In this document: in pieces, positions 1 to 16,681 of the stretch | Layout: each line of letters begins with the position of its first letter | Position numbering within the stretch: the first letter of the stretch is position 1 | From: Escherichia coli | Lineage (GTDB): Bacteria; Pseudomonadota; Gammaproteobacteria; Enterobacterales; Enterobacteriaceae | Assembly (NCBI RefSeq): GCF_024223415.1 | Contig: NZ_CP100500.1 | DNA: 64,000 nt | Strand: one strand, 5' to 3' | Notes under the pieces: generated by a model | Seen by the model: only the letters and a program-made list of their open reading frames with translations | The model's database searches: none | What the model was told of the DNA's origin: nothing | Made by a program: the position numbers and the translations under genes

Positions 1-334
1 AGGTACCCGTATCTGGCTCGTTGCCGGCGTTACCGATATGCGTAAATCCTTCAACGGACTGGGAGAACAGGTACAACATGTGCTGAATGATAATCCCTTC
101 TCCGGTCACCTGTTTATCTTCCGTGGCCGACGGGGTGACACCGTCAAAATTCTTTGGGCTGATGCTGATGGTCTGTGCCTGTTCACCAAACGCCTGGAGG
201 AAGGCCAGTTTATCTGGCCTGCGGTACGTGACGGCAAGGTATCCATTACCCGCTCGCAACTGGCAATGCTCCTCGATAAGCTGGACTGGCGTCAGCCAAA
301 AACATCCAGCCGTAACTCACTGACAATGTTGTAA
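1..334 (+). CDS. tnpB: IS66-family transposase accessory protein TnpB, 5'-partial (window edge)
   Basis: Reading frame open from position 2; translation GTRIWLVAGVTDMRKSFNGL...FIFRGRRGDTVKILWAD matches the IS66 Orf2/TnpB family and is paralogous to ORFs at 6483 and 45637 in this window. Confidence 0.9.
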   Translation, partial: GTRIWLVAGVTDMRKSFNGLGEQVQHVLNDNPFSGHLFIFRGRRGDTVKILWADADGLCLFTKRLEEGQFIWPAVRDGKVSITRSQLAMLLDKLDWRQPKTSSRNSLTML

Positions 335-364
335 AAAACTCCTGACCGCATTATAAAAACGGTC

Positions 365-1978
365 ATGAGTCAGAAATATCTCATTCGCATCGCAGAGCTG
401 GAAAGATTGCTCTCTGAGCAGGCTGAAGCCCTCCGTCAGAAAGACCAGCAACTGAGTCTGGTTGAAGAGACGGAAGCCTTCCTGCGCTCTGCACTGACAC
501 GTGCCGAAGAAAAGATCGAAGAAGATGAACGGGAAATAGAACATCTGCGGGCTCAGATAGAAAAACTGCGCCGGATGCTGTTCGGTCCCCGTTCTGAAAA
601 ACTGCGTCGTGAAGTTGAACTGGCTGAGGCTCTGCTGAAACAACGTGAACAGGACAGCGATCGTTACAGTGGGCGGGAAGACGATCCTCAGGTTCCCCGC
701 CAGTTGCGACAGTCGCGCCATCGTCGTCCGTTACCGGCACACCTTCCCCGTGAAATACACCGCCTGGAGCCAGAAGAAAGCTGTTGCCCGGAGTGTGGCG
801 GTGAGCTGGATTATCTGGGGGAAGTCAGCGCTGAACAGCTGGAACTGGTGAGCAGTGCCCTGAAAGTGATCCGCACAGAACGGGTAAAAAAAGCCTGTAC
901 AAAATGTGACTGTATTGTTGAAGCACCGGCGTCGTCCCGCCCGATAGAGCGTGGTATCGCGGGCCCCGGATTACTTGCCCGCGTGTTAACGGGAAAATAC
1001 TGCGAACATCTGCCACTGTATCGTCAGAGTGAAATCTTTGCCCGCCAGGGTGTCGAACTGAGCCGGGCCTTACTCTCCAACTGGGTTGACGCGTGCTGCC
1101 AGTTAATGACACCGGTGAATGATGCCCTGTACCGTTATGTAATGAACACCCGCAAGGTTCACACTGATGACACACCGGTAAAGGTACTGGCACCGGGTCA
1201 GAAAAAGGCGAAAACAGGGCGTATCTGGACGTATGTCCGGGATGATCGCAATGTGGGTTCGTCATCTCCTCCAGCGGTCTGGTTCGCGTACTCGCCGAAC
1301 CGGCAGGGGAAACACCCGGAGCAACACCTCCGCCCCTTCCGGGGTATCCTGCAGGCGGATGCGTTCACAGGTTACGACAGGTTGTTCAGTGCAGAACGTG
1401 AAGGTGGTGCACTGACAGAAGTTGCGTGCTGGGCCCATGCCCGGCGAAAAATCCACGATGTATACATCAGCAGCAAAAGTGCGACGGCAGAAGAAGCCCT
1501 GAAGCGAATCAGTGAACTGTACGCCATCGAGGATGAAATACGGGGATTAGCGGAGTCAGAGCGTCTTGCCGTCAGGCAGCAGCGAAGCAAAGTGTTACTG
1601 ACGTCGCTGCATGAATGGATGGTGGAGAAGAATGGTACGCTGTCGAAAAAATCCAGACTGGGCGAAGCGTTCAGCTATGTACTGAATCAGTGGGATGCCC
1701 TCTGTTATTACAGTGATGACGGTCTGGCGGAGGCGGATAATAATGCTGCGGAAAGAGCGCTTCGTGCAGTCTGTCTCGGAAAGAAAAACTTTATGTTCTT
1801 TGGCAGCGATCACGGCGGCGAGCGTGGAGCACTGTTGTACGGGCTGATCGGCACCTGCCGTCTGAACGGTATCGATCCGGAAGCGTATCTGCGCCATATC
1901 CTGAGCGTACTGCCGGAATGGCCTTCCAACCGAGTTGATGAACTCCTGCCATGGAACGTAGTACTCACCAATAAATAA
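365..1978 (+). CDS. tnpC: IS66-family transposase TnpC
   Basis: 537 aa ORF with leucine-zipper-like N-terminus, CxxC...CxxC zinc-finger region and DDE region; paralogous to 6850..8454 and 44049..45587. Confidence 0.93.
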   Translation: MSQKYLIRIAELERLLSEQAEALRQKDQQLSLVEETEAFLRSALTRAEEKIEEDEREIEHLRAQIEKLRRMLFGPRSEKLRREVELAEALLKQREQDSDRYSGREDDPQVPRQLRQSRHRRPLPAHLPREIHRLEPEESCCPECGGELDYLGEVSAEQLELVSSALKVIRTERVKKACTKCDCIVEAPASSRPIERGIAGPGLLARVLTGKYCEHLPLYRQSEIFARQGVELSRALLSNWVDACCQLMTPVNDALYRYVMNTRKVHTDDTPVKVLAPGQKKAKTGRIWTYVRDDRNVGSSSPPAVWFAYSPNRQGKHPEQHLRPFRGILQADAFTGYDRLFSAEREGGALTEVACWAHARRKIHDVYISSKSATAEEALKRISELYAIEDEIRGLAESERLAVRQQRSKVLLTSLHEWMVEKNGTLSKKSRLGEAFSYVLNQWDALCYYSDDGLAEADNNAAERALRAVCLGKKNFMFFGSDHGGERGALLYGLIGTCRLNGIDPEAYLRHILSVLPEWPSNRVDELLPWNVVLTNK

Positions 1979-2084
1979 GCGTCAATACGGTGCTCCGTTG
2001 ACGCTTACCGTTTACCGGATAATGAGCGAAAATATCCTGTTGTTACATGACAAACCATCACGACCGCAGCGGGAACATAAAGGC

Positions 2085-5600: not shown

Positions 5601-5811
5601 TATATCAACCGGAAATAGCCTACTGACATCCATGTATAAAGCCACATAATTATTTTGTTGATGTATCTTACCTAATACGTAAGCGTAAAGCCAATGCCGT
5701 CTGTAACTCCTGATCCTTGCAGACTAAATGTAAGCGCCCTATCAGCGACGTCTTGTGAAAATTGTCCTGTCTGGCAACAATTGCGCCCATCTATATTGAT
5801 GGACACGAACG

Positions 5812-6486
5812 ATGAATTCCCAGACAACAAAAGATATTCTCTGCTTCCGTTCTTATTTGCCTGATGCCCTACGTTTAAGATTTGAAGATAAACTGACTAT
5901 CCGAGCCATCGCTCAGCGTCTAGGTCTCAGTCATTCCACAATACATACGCTTTTTCAGCGATTTCTTGCATCCGGTATCGCATGGCCATTGCCCGATTCA
6001 GTTTCATTCGCTCAACTTGACGCCATCCTTTATGCCAACAGAAAGAAGGAATTAACAGAGCCTCAAATCAGAGAAGGCTCATGGCGAAAAGAACGGCGAA
6101 CCAGCTATAGCCGTGAATTTAAGGTCCGTCTGGCTAAGCAGGCATTACAGCCTGGTGCTGTTGTTGCCCGGATCGCCAGAGAACACGATATCAATGATAA
6201 GCTGCTGTTTAAATGGAAAAGCCAGTACGAGGACGGCTTACTGAGCGATGATGACATACAGGAATGCATGCCTGTCCCGGTGGCACTGACTGATAAGCCA
6301 GAGCCGACCAGACCAGTTACAAATCCCTTCTGGCGTAACAAGCCTGATGAGCGCCCTGAGGGGGATCCCGGAAACGTCCCACGGTGCGAGCTGCATCTTA
6401 AATCAGGTGTGGTAAAACTGTTTGACCCTCTCACTCCGGAACTGTTACGGGCGCTAATCCGCGAAATGAAAGGGGGTACCCGATGA
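5812..6486 (+). CDS. IS66-family accessory protein, TnpA-like with N-terminal extension
   Basis: 224 aa; central region ...YSREFKVRLAKQALQPGAVVARIAREHDINDKLLFKWKSQY... resembles IS66 Orf1 HTH; overlaps tnpB start. Confidence 0.7.
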   Translation: MNSQTTKDILCFRSYLPDALRLRFEDKLTIRAIAQRLGLSHSTIHTLFQRFLASGIAWPLPDSVSFAQLDAILYANRKKELTEPQIREGSWRKERRTSYSREFKVRLAKQALQPGAVVARIAREHDINDKLLFKWKSQYEDGLLSDDDIQECMPVPVALTDKPEPTRPVTNPFWRNKPDERPEGDPGNVPRCELHLKSGVVKLFDPLTPELLRALIREMKGGTR

Positions 6487-6830
6487 TAACGCTGCCGACC
6501 GGTACCAAAATCTGGATCATCGCTGGCATCACAGATATGCGTTGTGGCTTCAATGGCCTGGCTTCGAAGGTGCAGAACACGCTGAAAGATGACCCGTTCT
6601 CCGGGCATATCTTCGTCTTCCGGGGCCGCAGTGGCAAAATGGTGAAAATACTGTGGGCCGATCGTGATGGGTTATGCCTGTTCGCCAAACGCCTGGAACG
6701 GGGCCGCTTCATCTGGCCGGTGACCCGGGAAGGGAAAGTGCACCTGACGCCAGCTCAGTTATCCATGCTACTGGAGGGGATCGCGTGGCAACATCCCAAA
6801 CGGACAGAACGGCCTGGCATCCGGATATAA
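6483..6830 (+). CDS. tnpB: IS66-family TnpB
   Basis: 115 aa MITLPTGTKIWIIAGITDMRCGFNGL...; paralogous to the other TnpB copies. Confidence 0.9.
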   Translation: MITLPTGTKIWIIAGITDMRCGFNGLASKVQNTLKDDPFSGHIFVFRGRSGKMVKILWADRDGLCLFAKRLERGRFIWPVTREGKVHLTPAQLSMLLEGIAWQHPKRTERPGIRI

Positions 6831-6849
6831 CCCGTGATAAAACAAGGGA

Positions 6850-8454
6850 ATGAACAATGAACTCCCCGACGATATTGAGCTGCTTAAAGCCATGTTGCGT
6901 AAGCAACAGAGTCGGCTTCGCCAGTATACCTGTCAGGTCGCGGGCTATGAGCAGGAAATTGAACGGCTGAAAGCGCAACTCGACAGGTTGCGTCGTATGT
7001 TGTTCGGCCAGAGTTCAGAGAAAAAGCGTCATAAGCTTGAAAATCAGATCCGACAGGCAGAAAAACGACTGTCGGAACTGGAAAACCGGCTGAACACAGC
7101 CAGAAATCTTCTGGAAGATGCATCGTCAGTCACAGATTCACCTGACACCAGTCCCCCGTCAGAAAACCCGATCGCCAGTAAGCCTGAATCCCTGGGACGA
7201 AAATCTTCACGAAAACCGCTGCCGGCAGAACTTCCCCGGGAGACACATCGCCTTCTGCCTGCTGAAACCAGTTGCCCGGCCTGTGGAGGTGTTCTGAAAG
7301 AAATGGGGGAAACAATCTCAGAGCAACTGGATATCATTAATACCGCCTTTAAAGTTATTGAAACCATACGTCCCAAACGGGCCTGTAGCCGGTGCGACCA
7401 TATTGTGCAGGCGCCGGTTCCTTCAAAACCCATTGCACGCAGTTATGCCGGAGCGGGGCTTCTGGCTCATATCGTCACCGGGAAGTATGCAGACTATCTG
7501 CCGTTATACCGCCAGTCAGAAATATACCGTCGTCAGGGCGTGGAACTGAGCCGCGCCACGCTGGGGCGCTGGACCGGTGCCGTTGCTGAACTGCCGGAGC
7601 CGCTGTATGACGTGCTGCGCCAGTATGTGCTGATGCCCGGTAAAGTCCATGCGGATGATATCCCCGTTCCGGTCCAGGAGCCGGGCAGCGGTAAAACCCG
7701 GACAGCCCGGCTGTGGGTCTACGTCCGTGATGACCGCAATGCCGGTTCGGAAATGCCCCTGGCGGTCTGGTTCGCGTACAGTCCGGACCGGAAAGGCATA
7801 CATCCCTAGACTCATCTGGCCGGTTACAGCGGAGTGCTTCAGGCCGATGCTTACGGTGGCTACCGGGCGTTATACGAATCCGGCAGAATAACGGAAGCCG
7901 CGTGTATGGCTCATGCCCGGAGAAAAATCCACGATGTGCATGCAAGAGTGCCAACCGACATCACCACGGAAGCCCTGCGGCGTATCGGTGAACTGTATGT
8001 CATCGAGGCAGAAGTCCGGGGATGTTCAGCAGAACAGCGTCTGGCGGTAAGAAAAGCCAGAGCTGCGCCACTGATGCAGTCACTGTATGACTGGATACAG
8101 ACTCAGATGAAAACACTGTCGCGTCACTCGGATACGGCAAAAGCGTTCGCATACCTGCTGAAACAGTGGGATGGCCTGAACGTGTACTGCAGTAATGGCT
8201 GGGTGGAAATCGACAACAACATCGCAGAGAACGCCTTACGGGGAGTGGCCGTAGGCCGGAAAAACTGGCTCTTCGCGGGTTCCGACAGCGGTGGCGAACA
8301 TGCGGCGGTGTTGTACTCGCTGATCGGCACATGCCGTCTGAACAATGTGGAACCAGAAAAATGGCTGCGTTACGTCATTGAGCATATCCAGGACTGGCCG
8401 GCAAACCGGGTACGCGATCTGTTGCCCTGGAAAGTGGATCTGACCTCTCAGTAA
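6850..8454 (+). pseudogene. tnpC: IS66-family transposase TnpC interrupted by an in-frame TAG at 7807..7809
   Basis: ORFs 6850..7809 and 7834..8454 are in the same frame; the paralog at 44049..45587 reads ...[10 protein letters not shown]... where this copy reads ...KGIHP*THLA..., consistent with CAG to TAG. Confidence 0.85.
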
Positions 8455-8491
8455 ATATCAATACGGTTCTGGCGAGCCGCTTACGAACAAT

Positions 8492-10205
8492 GTGAATTAT
8501 GTTAATTATGTTTTCAGGCAGATGCTTCTCTGTCTGTTATTGTTCTGGCTGCCTGTATCCTGGGCTACCGAAAGTGGCTGGTTGCGTTCTCCTGAGAATG
8601 AGCATGCCAGTATACGGATACGTGCTGATTCCGTGGTCTCCGGGGAAACACGTGTTTTGCTGGACGTTAAACTGGATAACGGCTGGAAAACTTACTGGCG
8701 CTCACCCGGATAAGGGGGGATTGCACCGTCAGTCGACTGGAAAAGTGAAACACCGGAAGTGGAGTGGTACTGGCCTGGCCTTCACGTTTTGACGTGGCCG
8801 GCATTACCACTACGGGATATCACAACACAGTCACGTTTCCCGTGGTGTTACGTGGTATATCACCTGAGAGGATCACTGGCGTACTGACCCTGCCTGTCTG
8901 CAGCAATGTCTGTCTGCTGACCGATTACCCTTTCACTGTGAATGTTTCCACACAGGATACAACATTTGCACATGATTACGCACAGGCCATGGGGAAAATT
9001 CCGCTTTCCCATGGGGTAGCGGATTCCTTAAACGCGGTTTACCGACCTGGTGGACTGCTCATTACCGCAATACGGGCAGACGGCTGGTCATCTCCGGATA
9101 TTTATCTGGATTCTGTTGATTATGCAAGCTTCGGTAAGCCGCAGATGCAGATTGACGGCAAGAATCTGCTCGCATCTGTGCCGGTCACGGACAACTGGGG
9201 AGAGGGGGCGCCGGACCTGACTGGCCAACAAGTCACACTGGTTATTGAAAGCGGCGGCCTCGCTCAGGAAAGTACGCTTACGGTTGCGGCAGGTGCAACC
9301 AAAATAGCAGAGAATGTCTTACCTCTTTGGCAGGTCACTCTGATGGCATTAGCTGGTGGACTCATTCTTAACCTGATGCCCTGTGTATTACCGGTTCTGG
9401 GGATGAAGCTGGGCTCAGTTTTACTGGTGGAAGAGAAAAACCGTCAGCAGATTCGATGTCAGTTTCTGATGTCTGTAGCCGGGATCCTTACTTCCTTTAT
9501 GGCTCTGGCTACGTTAATGACCCTTCTGCGGCTGACAAACCGGGCTCTGGGGTGGGGGATCCAGTATCAGAGTCCCTGGTTTATTGTTCTGATGACGCTG
9601 GTTATGCTGATTTTTAGTGCCAGTCTGTTTGGCCTGTTTGAGTTCCGCCTGCCTTCCGGCCTCATGACTCGTCTGGCGACATTTGGTGGTAATGGAATGT
9701 CCGGACATTTCTGGCAGGGCGCTTTTGCGACTCTTCTGGCGACACCGTGTAGCGCCCCCTTCCTCGGTACGGCAGTGGCAGTGGCGCTGACGGCATCACT
9801 ACCCACTCTGTGGGGGATTTTCTTTGCACTGGGCGTGGGAATGAGTCTTCCGTGGCTGTTGGTGGCGTTGCGACCCGGGCTTGCGTTGTGTTTGCCCCAT
9901 CCGGGAGGATGGATGAATATTTTGCGTCGGGTGCTTGGCCTGATGATGCTGGGTTCTGCCTTCTGGCTGACAACACTGTTACTGCCACACTTGGGAGTAT
10001 CCTCACACAGTACAACGAAAGAACAGGTTGTCTGGCAGCCTCTCAGTGAACAGGCGATTAAGGAGGCGCTGGCTCAGCATAAGCGGGTATTTATCGATGT
10101 GACTGCAGACTGGTGTGTTACCTGTAAATTCAATAAATACAATGTGCTGCAAAAAGACAATGTGCAGAAGTCGCTGCAGGAGGCGGATGTTGTTGCACTG
10201 CGTGG
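8492..10205 (+). pseudogene. scsB: DsbD-family thiol:disulfide interchange protein (ScsB-like), decayed and 3'-truncated
   Basis: N-terminal ORF stops at TAA 8711..8713, frame resumes in 8764..; central transmembrane core and C-terminal thioredoxin motif WCVTCK present; reading frame runs into IS629 at 10206. Confidence 0.7.
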
Positions 10206-10259
10206 TGAACCGCCCCGGGAATCCTGGAGACTAAACTCCCTGAGAAAGAGGTAAACAGA

Positions 10260-10586
10260 ATGACTAAAAATACTCGTTTTTCCCCCGAAGTCCGTCAGAG
10301 GGCGATTCGTATGGTTCTGGAAAGTCAGGGCGAATATGACTCACAGTGGGCGGCAATTTGTTCCATTGCCCCAAAGATTGGCTGTACACCGGAGACTCTG
10401 CGTGTCTGGGTACGCCAGCATGAGCGGGATACCGGAGGCGGTGATGGCGGGCTCACCACCGCTGAACGTCAGCGTCTGAAAGAGCTGGAACGTGAAAATC
10501 GTGAACTGCGCCGCAGTAACGATATCCTTCGCCAGGCTTCCGCTTATTTTGCGAAGGCGGAGTTCGACCGCCTCTGGAAAAAGTGA
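10260..10586 (+). CDS. IS629 OrfA
   Basis: [59 protein letters not shown]... Confidence 0.9.
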
Positions 10587-11473
10587 TGCCACTGCTGGAT
10601 AAGCTGCGTAAGCTGTACGGGGTCGGACCGGTATGCAGTGAACTACATATTGCCCCGTCAACGTATTACCACTGTCAGCAACAGCAGCATCATCCTGATA
10701 AACGCAGCGCCCGTGCGCAGCGTGATGACTGGCTGAAGAAAGAGATACAGCGCGTATACGATGAAAATCACCAGGTGTACGGTGTGCGTAAAGTCTGGCG
10801 TCAGTTGTTACGGGAAGGTATCAGAGTGGCCAGATGCACTGTGACACGTCTTATGGCGGTTATGGGTTTTGCCGATGTTCTCCGGGGTAAAAAGGTCCGC
10901 ACTACCGTCAGCCGGAAAGCCGTTGCCGCAGGCGACCGCGTAAACCGTCAGTTTGTGGCAGAACGTCCTGACCAGTTGTGGGTGGCTGATTTTACTTACG
11001 TCAGCACATGGCAGGGGGTCGTCTATGTGGCGTTCATCATTGATGTGTTTGCCGGATACATCGTGGGGTGGCGGGTCTCATCGTCTATGGAAACGACATT
11101 CGTGCTGGATGCTCTGGAGCAGGCGTTATGGGCCCGTCGACCGTCCGGCACAGTCCATCACAGTGATAAAGGTTCTCAGTATGTATCGCTGGCCTACACA
11201 CAGCGGCTTAAGGAAGCCGGATTACTGGCATCAACAGGAAGTACTGGTGACTCGTATGACAACGCGATGGCGGAGAGCATCAATGGCCTTTACAAAGCGG
11301 AGGTAATACACCGTAAGAGCTGGAAAAACCGGACAGAAGTGGAGCTGGCCACACTCACGTGGGTGGACTGGTATAACAATCGACGATTGCTGGAAAGGCT
11401 GGGCCATATCCCACCGGCAGAAGCAGAAAAAGCTTATTATGCTTCCATCGGAAACGATGATCTGGCAGCCTGA
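10583..11473 (+). CDS. IS629 OrfB (DDE transposase)
   Basis: 296 aa with integrase catalytic core ...[13 protein letters not shown]...[10 protein letters not shown]...; overlaps OrfA as in IS3-family frameshift arrangement. Confidence 0.9.
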
Positions 11474-11523
11474 GTTCACAGATAAAACACTCTCCAGGAA
11501 ACCCGGGGCGGTTCACTCCGGAG

Positions 11524-15670: not shown

Positions 15671-15761
15671 GTAAGCGCTCCTTCTGTGCCGTCTTGTGGT
15701 GGTTGTCCTGTCTGGCAACAATCGCGTCCATCTATTGATGGACACGAACGATGAATTCTCA
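15671..15761 (+). mobile_element. IS66-family left-end fragment (about 90 bp), truncated by IS2
   Basis: Begins GTAAGCG and contains a 60-bp stretch nearly identical to 5758..5820 including the MNSQ start of the accessory ORF; similarity ends at the IS2 junction. Confidence 0.65.
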
Positions 15762-15775
15762 GACTGGATTTGCCC

Positions 15776-16681
15776 CTATATTTCCAGACACCTGTTATCA
15801 CTTAACCCATTACTGGCTTGCTGCCGTAGATATTCCCGTGGCGAGCGATAACCCAGTGCACTATGCGGATGCCATTCGTTATAATGCTCGAACGCCTCTG
15901 CAAGGTTCTTTGCTGCCGTTAACCCGTCTGGTTTAGGCATGATACTGATGTAGTCACGCTTTATCGTTTTCACGAAGCTCTCTGCTATGCCGTTACTCTC
16001 CGGACTCCGCACCGCCGTGCTCTTCGGTTCAAGCCCCAACATCCGGGCAAACTGCCGTGTTTCATTAGCCCGGTAGCATGAACCATTATCCGTCAGCCAC
16101 TCTACTGGAGACGCCGGAAGCTCGTTGCCGAAGCGGCGTTCCACCGCTCCTGGCATGACGTCCTGTACTGTTTCACTGTTGAAGCCGCCCGTAGTGACCG
16201 CCCAGTGCAGTGCCTCACGGTCACAGCAGTCCAGCGCGAACGTGACTCGCAGTTTTTCTCCGTTATCACAGCGGAACTCGAACCCGTCAGAGCACCATCG
16301 CTGATTACTTTCTTTCACAGCCACTCTGCCTGTATGTGCCCGTTTCGATGGCGGTACAGCAGGTTTTCGCTCAAGCAACAGCGCATTCTGGCGCATGATC
16401 CGGTAAACACGTTTGGCATTGATCGCAGGCATACCATCAAGTTCTGCCTGTCTGCGAAGCAGCGCCCATACCCGACGATAACCATACGTGGGCAGCTCTC
16501 CGATAACATGGTGTATACGGAGAAGCACATCCGTATCATCTGAGTGACGGCTGCGGCGACCATCTTTCCAGTCATCGGTTCGTCTGAGAATGACGTGCAA
16601 CTGCGCACGCGACACCCGGAGACAACGGCTGACTAAGCTTACTCCCCATCCCCGGGCAATAAGGGCGCGTGCGCTATCCAC
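15776..16681 (-). CDS. insD: IS2 transposase InsD (OrfB)
   Basis: 301 aa matching IS2 InsD. Confidence 0.92.

Follow-up and report, generated by a model that had tools for sequence, protein, structure and literature searches.

The window analysed here, a 64-kb stretch of Escherichia coli DNA taken as a whole, contains an IS66-family element lying between genes for a TonB-dependent receptor and a DUF4198 protein on its left and a DsbD-family pseudogene on its right (Table 1). Its three genes stand in series on one strand in the tnpA-tnpB-tnpC layout of the family, with the start of tnpB overlapping the stop of tnpA by 4 nt, and their products score above the cut-offs of the NCBIfam models IS66_access_TnpA, IS66_TnpB and transpos_IS66. 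For TnpC the score against transpos_IS66 is 464 bits (cut-off 180) when the amber codon that interrupts the gene is read as Gln, and the same read-through protein carries all four Pfam domains of an IS66 TnpC: LZ_Tnp_IS66 (residues 39-132), zf-IS66 (139-183), DDE_Tnp_IS66 (197-483) and DDE_Tnp_IS66_C (490-527). Both ends of the element begin 5'-GTAAGCG, the terminal-repeat motif of the family. TnpA has two Pfam domains, HTH_23 at residues 23-56 and HTH_Tnp_1 at 94-170; the HTH_23 helix-turn-helix is an extra one, N-terminal to the usual HTH_Tnp_1, and the TnpA of the intact paralog elsewhere in the window has only 133 residues.

Table 1. Features of the interrupted IS66-family element, its junctions and the comparator element (window coordinates)
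Feature	Position	Strand	Detail
Orphan 51-bp left terminus (starts GTAAGCG) of a different IS66-family IS	5679..5729	+	cut off by the insertion beginning at 5730
Chimeric IS66-family element, 2755 bp, tnpA + tnpB + tnpC pseudogene	5730..8484	+	ends GTAAGCG/CGCTTAC
Left inverted repeat (IRL), ISSfl3-type	5730..5769	+	29/30 to ISSfl3 IRL
tnpA, 224 aa, intact	5812..6486	+	NCBIfam IS66_access_TnpA 279 bits (cut-off 150)
tnpB (IS66 accessory protein), 115 aa, intact	6483..6830	+	Pfam TnpB_IS66 132 bits; NCBIfam IS66_TnpB 125 bits
tnpC pseudogene	6850..8454	+	hybrid ISSfl3/IS679 transposase frame, one internal stop
Crossover between ISSfl3-derived and IS679-derived sequence	7388..7394	+	conserved zinc-finger codons (ACSRCD)
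T giving Tyr216 (H216Y)	7495	+	C (His) in 11 TAG-bearing sister copies
Amber codon TAG, codon 320	7807..7809	+	between catalytic-type D270 and D333; E460 downstream
Right inverted repeat (IRR), IS679-type	8445..8484	-	30/30 to IS679 IRR; 17/30 to ISSfl3 IRR
Right flank GAACAATG	8485..8492	.	mismatches left flank GACTAAAT (5722-5729)
Comparator, intact IS66-family element of a different species	44012..46453	-	tnpA 133 aa, tnpB 115 aa, tnpC 512 aa

Translated in frame, tnpC spans 535 codons, and apart from the natural terminator at codon 535 its only stop is codon 320; in the list of open reading frames it appears as two pieces in the same frame, 6850..7809 (319 aa) and 7834..8454 (206 aa). An earlier note on this DNA had contrasted the TAG with a CAG (Gln) at the aligned codon of the intact paralog (44049..45587, minus strand), and the alignment bears this out; the aligned residue is Gln in 118/120 of the best homologues, encoded by CAA in IS679 and ISCro1 and by CAG in two other near relatives (L021 and L003). 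Judged from these codons, a single C-to-T change from CAG to TAG would be the simplest, single-step route to the stop. Three acidic residues, D270, D333 and E460, which we take to be the D-D-E set of TnpC, are conserved in 120/120, 112/120 and 119/120 homologues, respectively. The stop falls inside the DDE domain, upstream of D333 and E460, so the element lacks the uninterrupted transposase that autonomy requires: the 319-aa product keeps the leucine zipper, the zinc finger and the first conserved Asp but neither D333 nor E460, and neither half of the split frame holds all three residues together. Because the stop precedes D333 and E460, we infer that catalytic activity has been lost.

The same stop recurs in other genomes, always at this locus. 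Among 5426 complete E. coli genomes one, that of isolate ECCNB12-2 (chromosome NZ_CP033635.1), carries a near-identical copy at the same position, with 3 differences over 2901 nt relative to the window and none at 7807. RefSeq labels its tnpC 'IS66 family transposase, pseudo, internal stop', and tnpC is thus a pseudogene already flagged by standard annotation, of the same kind as other transposase pseudogenes with internal stops annotated by PGAP in E. coli and Shigella and with no material difference from them. A comparison with the same IS in other genomes, which the earlier note had proposed, returned TAG at codon 320 as the sole internal stop in 15/15 fetched copies (L001 and L007-L020), namely the ECCNB12-2 chromosome and 14 contigs from separate assemblies and projects, including two ENA metagenome assemblies. 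The window's right junction is present in all 15 and its left junction in 14, the contig of the fifteenth (L010) ending too near the gene for the left junction to be visible. The exact 319-aa product was found in 8 contigs in the window's variant and in at least 24 contigs in a variant with His216, and all TAG-bearing sub-lineages share the stop though they differ elsewhere (H216Y, E388A). At the ECCNB12-2 locus, neighbouring fragments of IS66, IS3 and IS110 elements are also annotated as pseudogenes.

The element proved to be a chimera of two IS species. In sliding windows computed from Biopython aligner alignments, identity to ISSfl3 (L005), an IS66-family element of Shigella flexneri and E. 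coli that we call by its RefSeq name, is 97-100% between 5730 and about 7380, whereas identity to IS679 (L002) and ISCro1 is 91-100% between about 7380 and 8484 (150-nt windows). IS679 is reportedly an IS66-family element of the E. coli plasmid pB171 that Han and colleagues are said to have described in 2001; the IS679-family copy used as comparator is 2704 bp long. Against the other parent, identity drops to 48-77% in the left part (to IS679) and to 62-75% in the right part (to ISSfl3). In ISfinder practice, copies of one IS species or isoform share nucleotide identity above about 95% over their whole length, and by this measure the element belongs to neither parent, with overall identities of 86% to ISSfl3 and 76% to IS679.

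A four-way alignment places the switch within a few bases, 7387 being the final ISSfl3-specific base and 7395 the first IS679-specific base. ISSfl3 matches the element through IRL, tnpA, tnpB and the 5' region of tnpC, with dS = 0.018 over tnpC codons 1-160, and differs from 7395 on. IS679 shares the tnpA-tnpB-tnpC layout and matches the right 1.09 kb of the element (7395-8484) including its IRR; it differs across the left 1.66 kb (IRL, tnpA, tnpB and about 180 tnpC codons), has CAA at the codon where the element has TAG, and is unlike the element in that the latter has no 8-bp duplication. The encoded TnpC is correspondingly a hybrid, ISSfl3-type from codon 1 to about codon 180 and IS679-type over the remainder, and because the two terminal arms derive from two IS species, the element's IRL agrees with its own IRR at only 18/30 positions.

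No intact version of this hybrid came to light. A search of 5.8 billion protein clusters returned no intact full-length hybrid TnpC, the best full-length matches being 78-80% identical and the sole close relatives being truncated proteins. Megablast found no intact hybrid progenitor in complete E. coli genomes or plasmids, and scans with an exact pattern whose first codon base was left free yielded none, either for the whole hybrid or for its 3' patch, from GTDB species representatives or JGI metagenomes. The description of tnpC in the earlier note as an otherwise intact transposase is therefore too generous, since the open frame is a recombinant for which no intact counterpart was found; it also carries the H216Y substitution considered below.

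The junctions of the element are as heterogeneous as its interior. The 8 bp immediately outside the ends are GACTAAAT on the left and GAACAATG on the right, confirming that the 8-bp target duplication typical of IS66 insertions is missing at 5730..8484, as had been noted before. The absence is real, because the intact paralog element at 44012..46453, examined in the same way, does have a perfect 8-bp repeat, GCTGAACC, on both sides. On the left, the insertion interrupts a 51-bp terminus of another IS66-family element; this 51-mer (5679-5729) occurs in 621/5426 E. coli genomes, at up to 22 places per genome, and an IS66-family element of pHUSEC2011-2 begins with it; there a transposase ORF of 144 aa occupies the position of tnpA, and tnpB comes next. 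The nested junction at 5679/5730 is base-identical in strain 104 and ECCNB12-2. We considered 5679 as the element's own left end and rejected it: homology to ISSfl3 begins at 5730, and the 51-mer is the terminus of the other element.

The right junction is restricted to the window's lineage among the 5426 complete genomes, and the left and right flanks are adjacent in no other complete E. coli genome, so no empty site was found. From the sequence, and by analogy with a documented case, the missing duplication would be best explained by homologous recombination between IS66-family copies, which would have left unrelated DNA on the element's two sides and hence no 8-bp duplication. On the Agrobacterium plasmid pAt15955, two IS66 copies recombine to leave one IS66 whose 8-bp flanks do not match, an outcome shown to require homologous recombination between the copies (PMC6778807). 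As in pAt15955, a lone element at our locus would carry 8-bp flanks that each stem from a different parental insertion; there, however, the parents were identical and the deletion was seen experimentally, whereas here the parents would be different IS species, the chimera is visible, and the event is read back from it. We found no reciprocal junctions (IRR next to GACTAAAT, or GAACAATG next to IRL) in the window or the fetched loci, and no parental arrangement with an IS679-type element beside a DsbD-like gene, so the recombination history is reconstructed rather than observed.

Other E. coli lineages share the identical left junction and are near-identical over the first ~2 kb, including the crossover at 7388-7394, but from about 7737 on they have different 3' segments, right flanks and lesions. 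In one of them (L021:5001-6605, GCA_902843545.1, the ortholog of 6850-8454), codon 320 is CAG and a TAG stands instead at codon 342 (TAC to TAG); identity to the window is 91.5% over 7737-8030 and 98% beyond, and the right flank is a glycosyltransferase gene. A third mosaic, found in E. coli TA008 and others (L022-L025:5001-6616), has a frameshift near codon 495 that yields 494-aa and 61-aa products; its tnpC runs as in the window to about codon 300 and then becomes ISEc8-like, resembling the copy at 365-1978 of the window, and its right flank differs again. These mosaics are the most telling evidence on the origin of the element, for they are what IS66-family copies at separate chromosomal sites would be expected to produce if they recombined homologously time and again. 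The element that contains the 365-1978 gene is a third IS66-family element in the window (1-2008, cut by the window edge), with an intact 537-aa tnpC whose product is 49% identical to the interrupted TnpC; it lies in the same orientation as the chimeric element, 3.7 kb upstream, and is a plausible recombination partner for the mosaics in other lineages.

Decay has continued since the stop arose. The divergence of the 3' part of tnpC from IS679, which predates the stop, is mostly synonymous (dN/dS 0.15-0.26), indicating that until recently this part was evolving as a functional gene. His occupies position 216 in 120/120 homologues but is replaced by Tyr in the window, and since TAG-bearing sister copies still have His216, the H216Y change arose after the TAG. 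Downstream of the stop, the variants among sister copies comprise 9 nonsynonymous and 3 synonymous changes, close to the ratio under neutrality; some of the assemblies counted are short-read or metagenomic and the sequence is a repeated one, so that assembly chimeras may be among these variants. Several of the post-stop variants strike residues that are invariant in the four-sequence alignment. One copy (L015:5001-6605, GCA_958323525.1) has 8 substitutions packed into the 51 nt orthologous to 8125-8175, past the stop, and 7 of these belong to nonsynonymous codon changes; gene conversion by another IS66 copy or a chimeric short-read assembly could account for the cluster.

The surrounding DNA is also marked by insertion and decay. 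The DsbD-family gene (8492-10254) is broken, a 73-aa ORF ending at a TAA beside a G6 run near 8711-8720 and a 496-aa ORF following it, and its RefSeq ortholog is described as 'frameshifted; internal stop; incomplete'. Inserted in this pseudogene is an IS3-family element of about 1.3 kb (10203-11510; orfA 10260-10586, orfB 10583-11473), and because it is absent from the otherwise colinear ECCNB12-2 locus, its insertion is the more recent and occurred in the window's lineage. Further along, a second orphan IS66-family left end (15671-15764), 84% identical to 5730-5825, abuts an IS3-family remnant (15763-16651) whose sequence recurs in inverted orientation (97%) in a fragment lying upstream of the ECCNB12-2 locus; the inverted fragment suggests an IS-mediated inversion or rearrangement in the region.

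Taken together, we consider it very probable that the element is a fixed, non-autonomous and immobile relic of IS66-family insertion sequences in the E. coli chromosome. In the order of events that we propose, an ISSfl3-type element would have landed within another IS66-family IS, 51 bp in from the left end of the latter and beside the operon of the TonB receptor and DUF4198 genes, and the right portion of the ISSfl3-type element would later have been replaced by homologous recombination with IS679-type copies. The outcome would be an element whose left end is that of ISSfl3 and whose right end is that of IS679, with a hybrid tnpC and with unrelated sequence on either side. Within the IS679-derived part, Gln codon 320 would have become TAG; translation would stop after 319 residues, no active transposase would be made, and the element would stay put.

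An alternative is that the element, though non-autonomous, is moved in trans by intact IS66-family copies. Its tnpA and tnpB are intact, both termini have ends of the GTAAGCG family, and two IS66-family copies with intact tnpC lie inside the same window. However, the intact paralog of the earlier note belongs to a different IS species, its TnpC (44049-45587, minus strand) being ~55-58% identical to the interrupted one; for the two potential helpers together, TnpC identity is only 49-58%, and the helper terminal repeats match those of the element at 17-20/30 positions. The element's own ends, moreover, come from different IS species. Helper TnpCs from distant IS species and heterologous ends therefore argue against mobilisation in trans, as do the missing target duplication and the distribution of the element: all 15 fetched copies lie at one locus, the further places listed have the same neighbouring genes, and no copy was found at any other locus. 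Of the two fates offered in the earlier note, immobile or mobilised in trans, the single locus makes immobility the most likely, and the divergent TnpCs and mismatched ends leave the second very unlikely.

We also weighed whether the amber is read through, by a supE-like suppressor tRNA or by near-cognate decoding, so that a little full-length TnpC results, the stop serving to throttle its production. A supE-type suppressor would reinstate exactly the conserved Gln, the remainder of the frame past the TAG is open, and the TAG is followed by A. In E. coli, an A after the stop does not make for the strongest termination context, and basal read-through of UAG is never exactly zero. Against this, the window contains no tRNA genes, and a supE allele is present in 155/5423 E. 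coli chromosomes, of which the matches listed (60/155) all look K-12-type and are mostly named laboratory derivatives. The RNA downstream of the stop (7801-7900) folds no better than shuffled sequences (z = +1.3), and no Rfam recoding element was found near the stop, so that neither of the usual marks of recoding, a conserved stop and a downstream structure or known element, is present. The stop is not a conserved feature, because it occurs at a single locus in a single lineage, and 118/120 homologues have Gln in its place; in addition, the missense at an invariant His (H216Y) arose after it, and a full-length protein, even if made, would meet mismatched ends. Programmed read-through was rejected on the same grounds, namely no conservation of the stop, no RNA structure and no Rfam element. 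The view in the earlier note that suppression or read-through is the less likely alternative is thus upheld by the absence of tRNA genes from the window and of any recoding signal, and we regard it as highly improbable.

Equally doubtful, in our judgement, is the idea that the 319-aa product, with its leucine zipper, zinc finger and partial DDE domain, may be kept because it inhibits or regulates related IS66-family elements in trans, a reading drawn by analogy with truncated transposase-derived inhibitors of other elements. It would be in keeping with two independent ambers only 22 codons apart (320 here, 342 in L021) that both spare the N-terminal DNA-binding region, and with the undamaged state of tnpA, tnpB and the reading frame upstream of the stop. 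Yet two nonsense mutations in a dead gene could easily be chance, and in the third lineage the lesion is a late frameshift. H216Y alters an invariant residue within the very fragment that would be retained, and the lineages have existed for too short a time to test for selection. That the TAG is anything beyond a mere lesion, whether through trace decoding of UAG as Gln to give a hybrid transposase or through a 319-aa trans-inhibitor of ISSfl3- and IS679-type elements, is accordingly something to which we give very little weight; if it were true, the independent amber at codon 342 of the same locus would reflect recurrent selection for truncation and not chance.

Finally, although a one-base difference from a sense codon is just the type of change that errors produce, a sequencing or assembly error at 7807 in a gene that is really intact, which the earlier note had named as the finding that would overturn it, is excluded for practical purposes by the identical TAG in ECCNB12-2 and the 14 contigs, 15 independent E. 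coli assemblies in all, and by its presence in sub-lineages that differ at other sites.

The element is thus an ordinary mobile-element pseudogene, a fixed and immobile relic in our preferred reading, and the core of the earlier interpretation stands with three corrections: tnpC is chimeric and not otherwise intact, recombination would readily account for the missing duplication, and the intact paralogs are too distant for a helper role to be likely. Its importance beyond correct annotation is small: counts of active IS elements should treat it as a pseudogene rather than as a possible source of transposition, and its junctions could be used as lineage markers. More generally, it offers a clean worked example of recombination within the IS66 family in E. 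coli, which would generate hybrids with mismatched ends and no target duplication and would lead different lineages to join different chromosomal segments to one and the same left junction.
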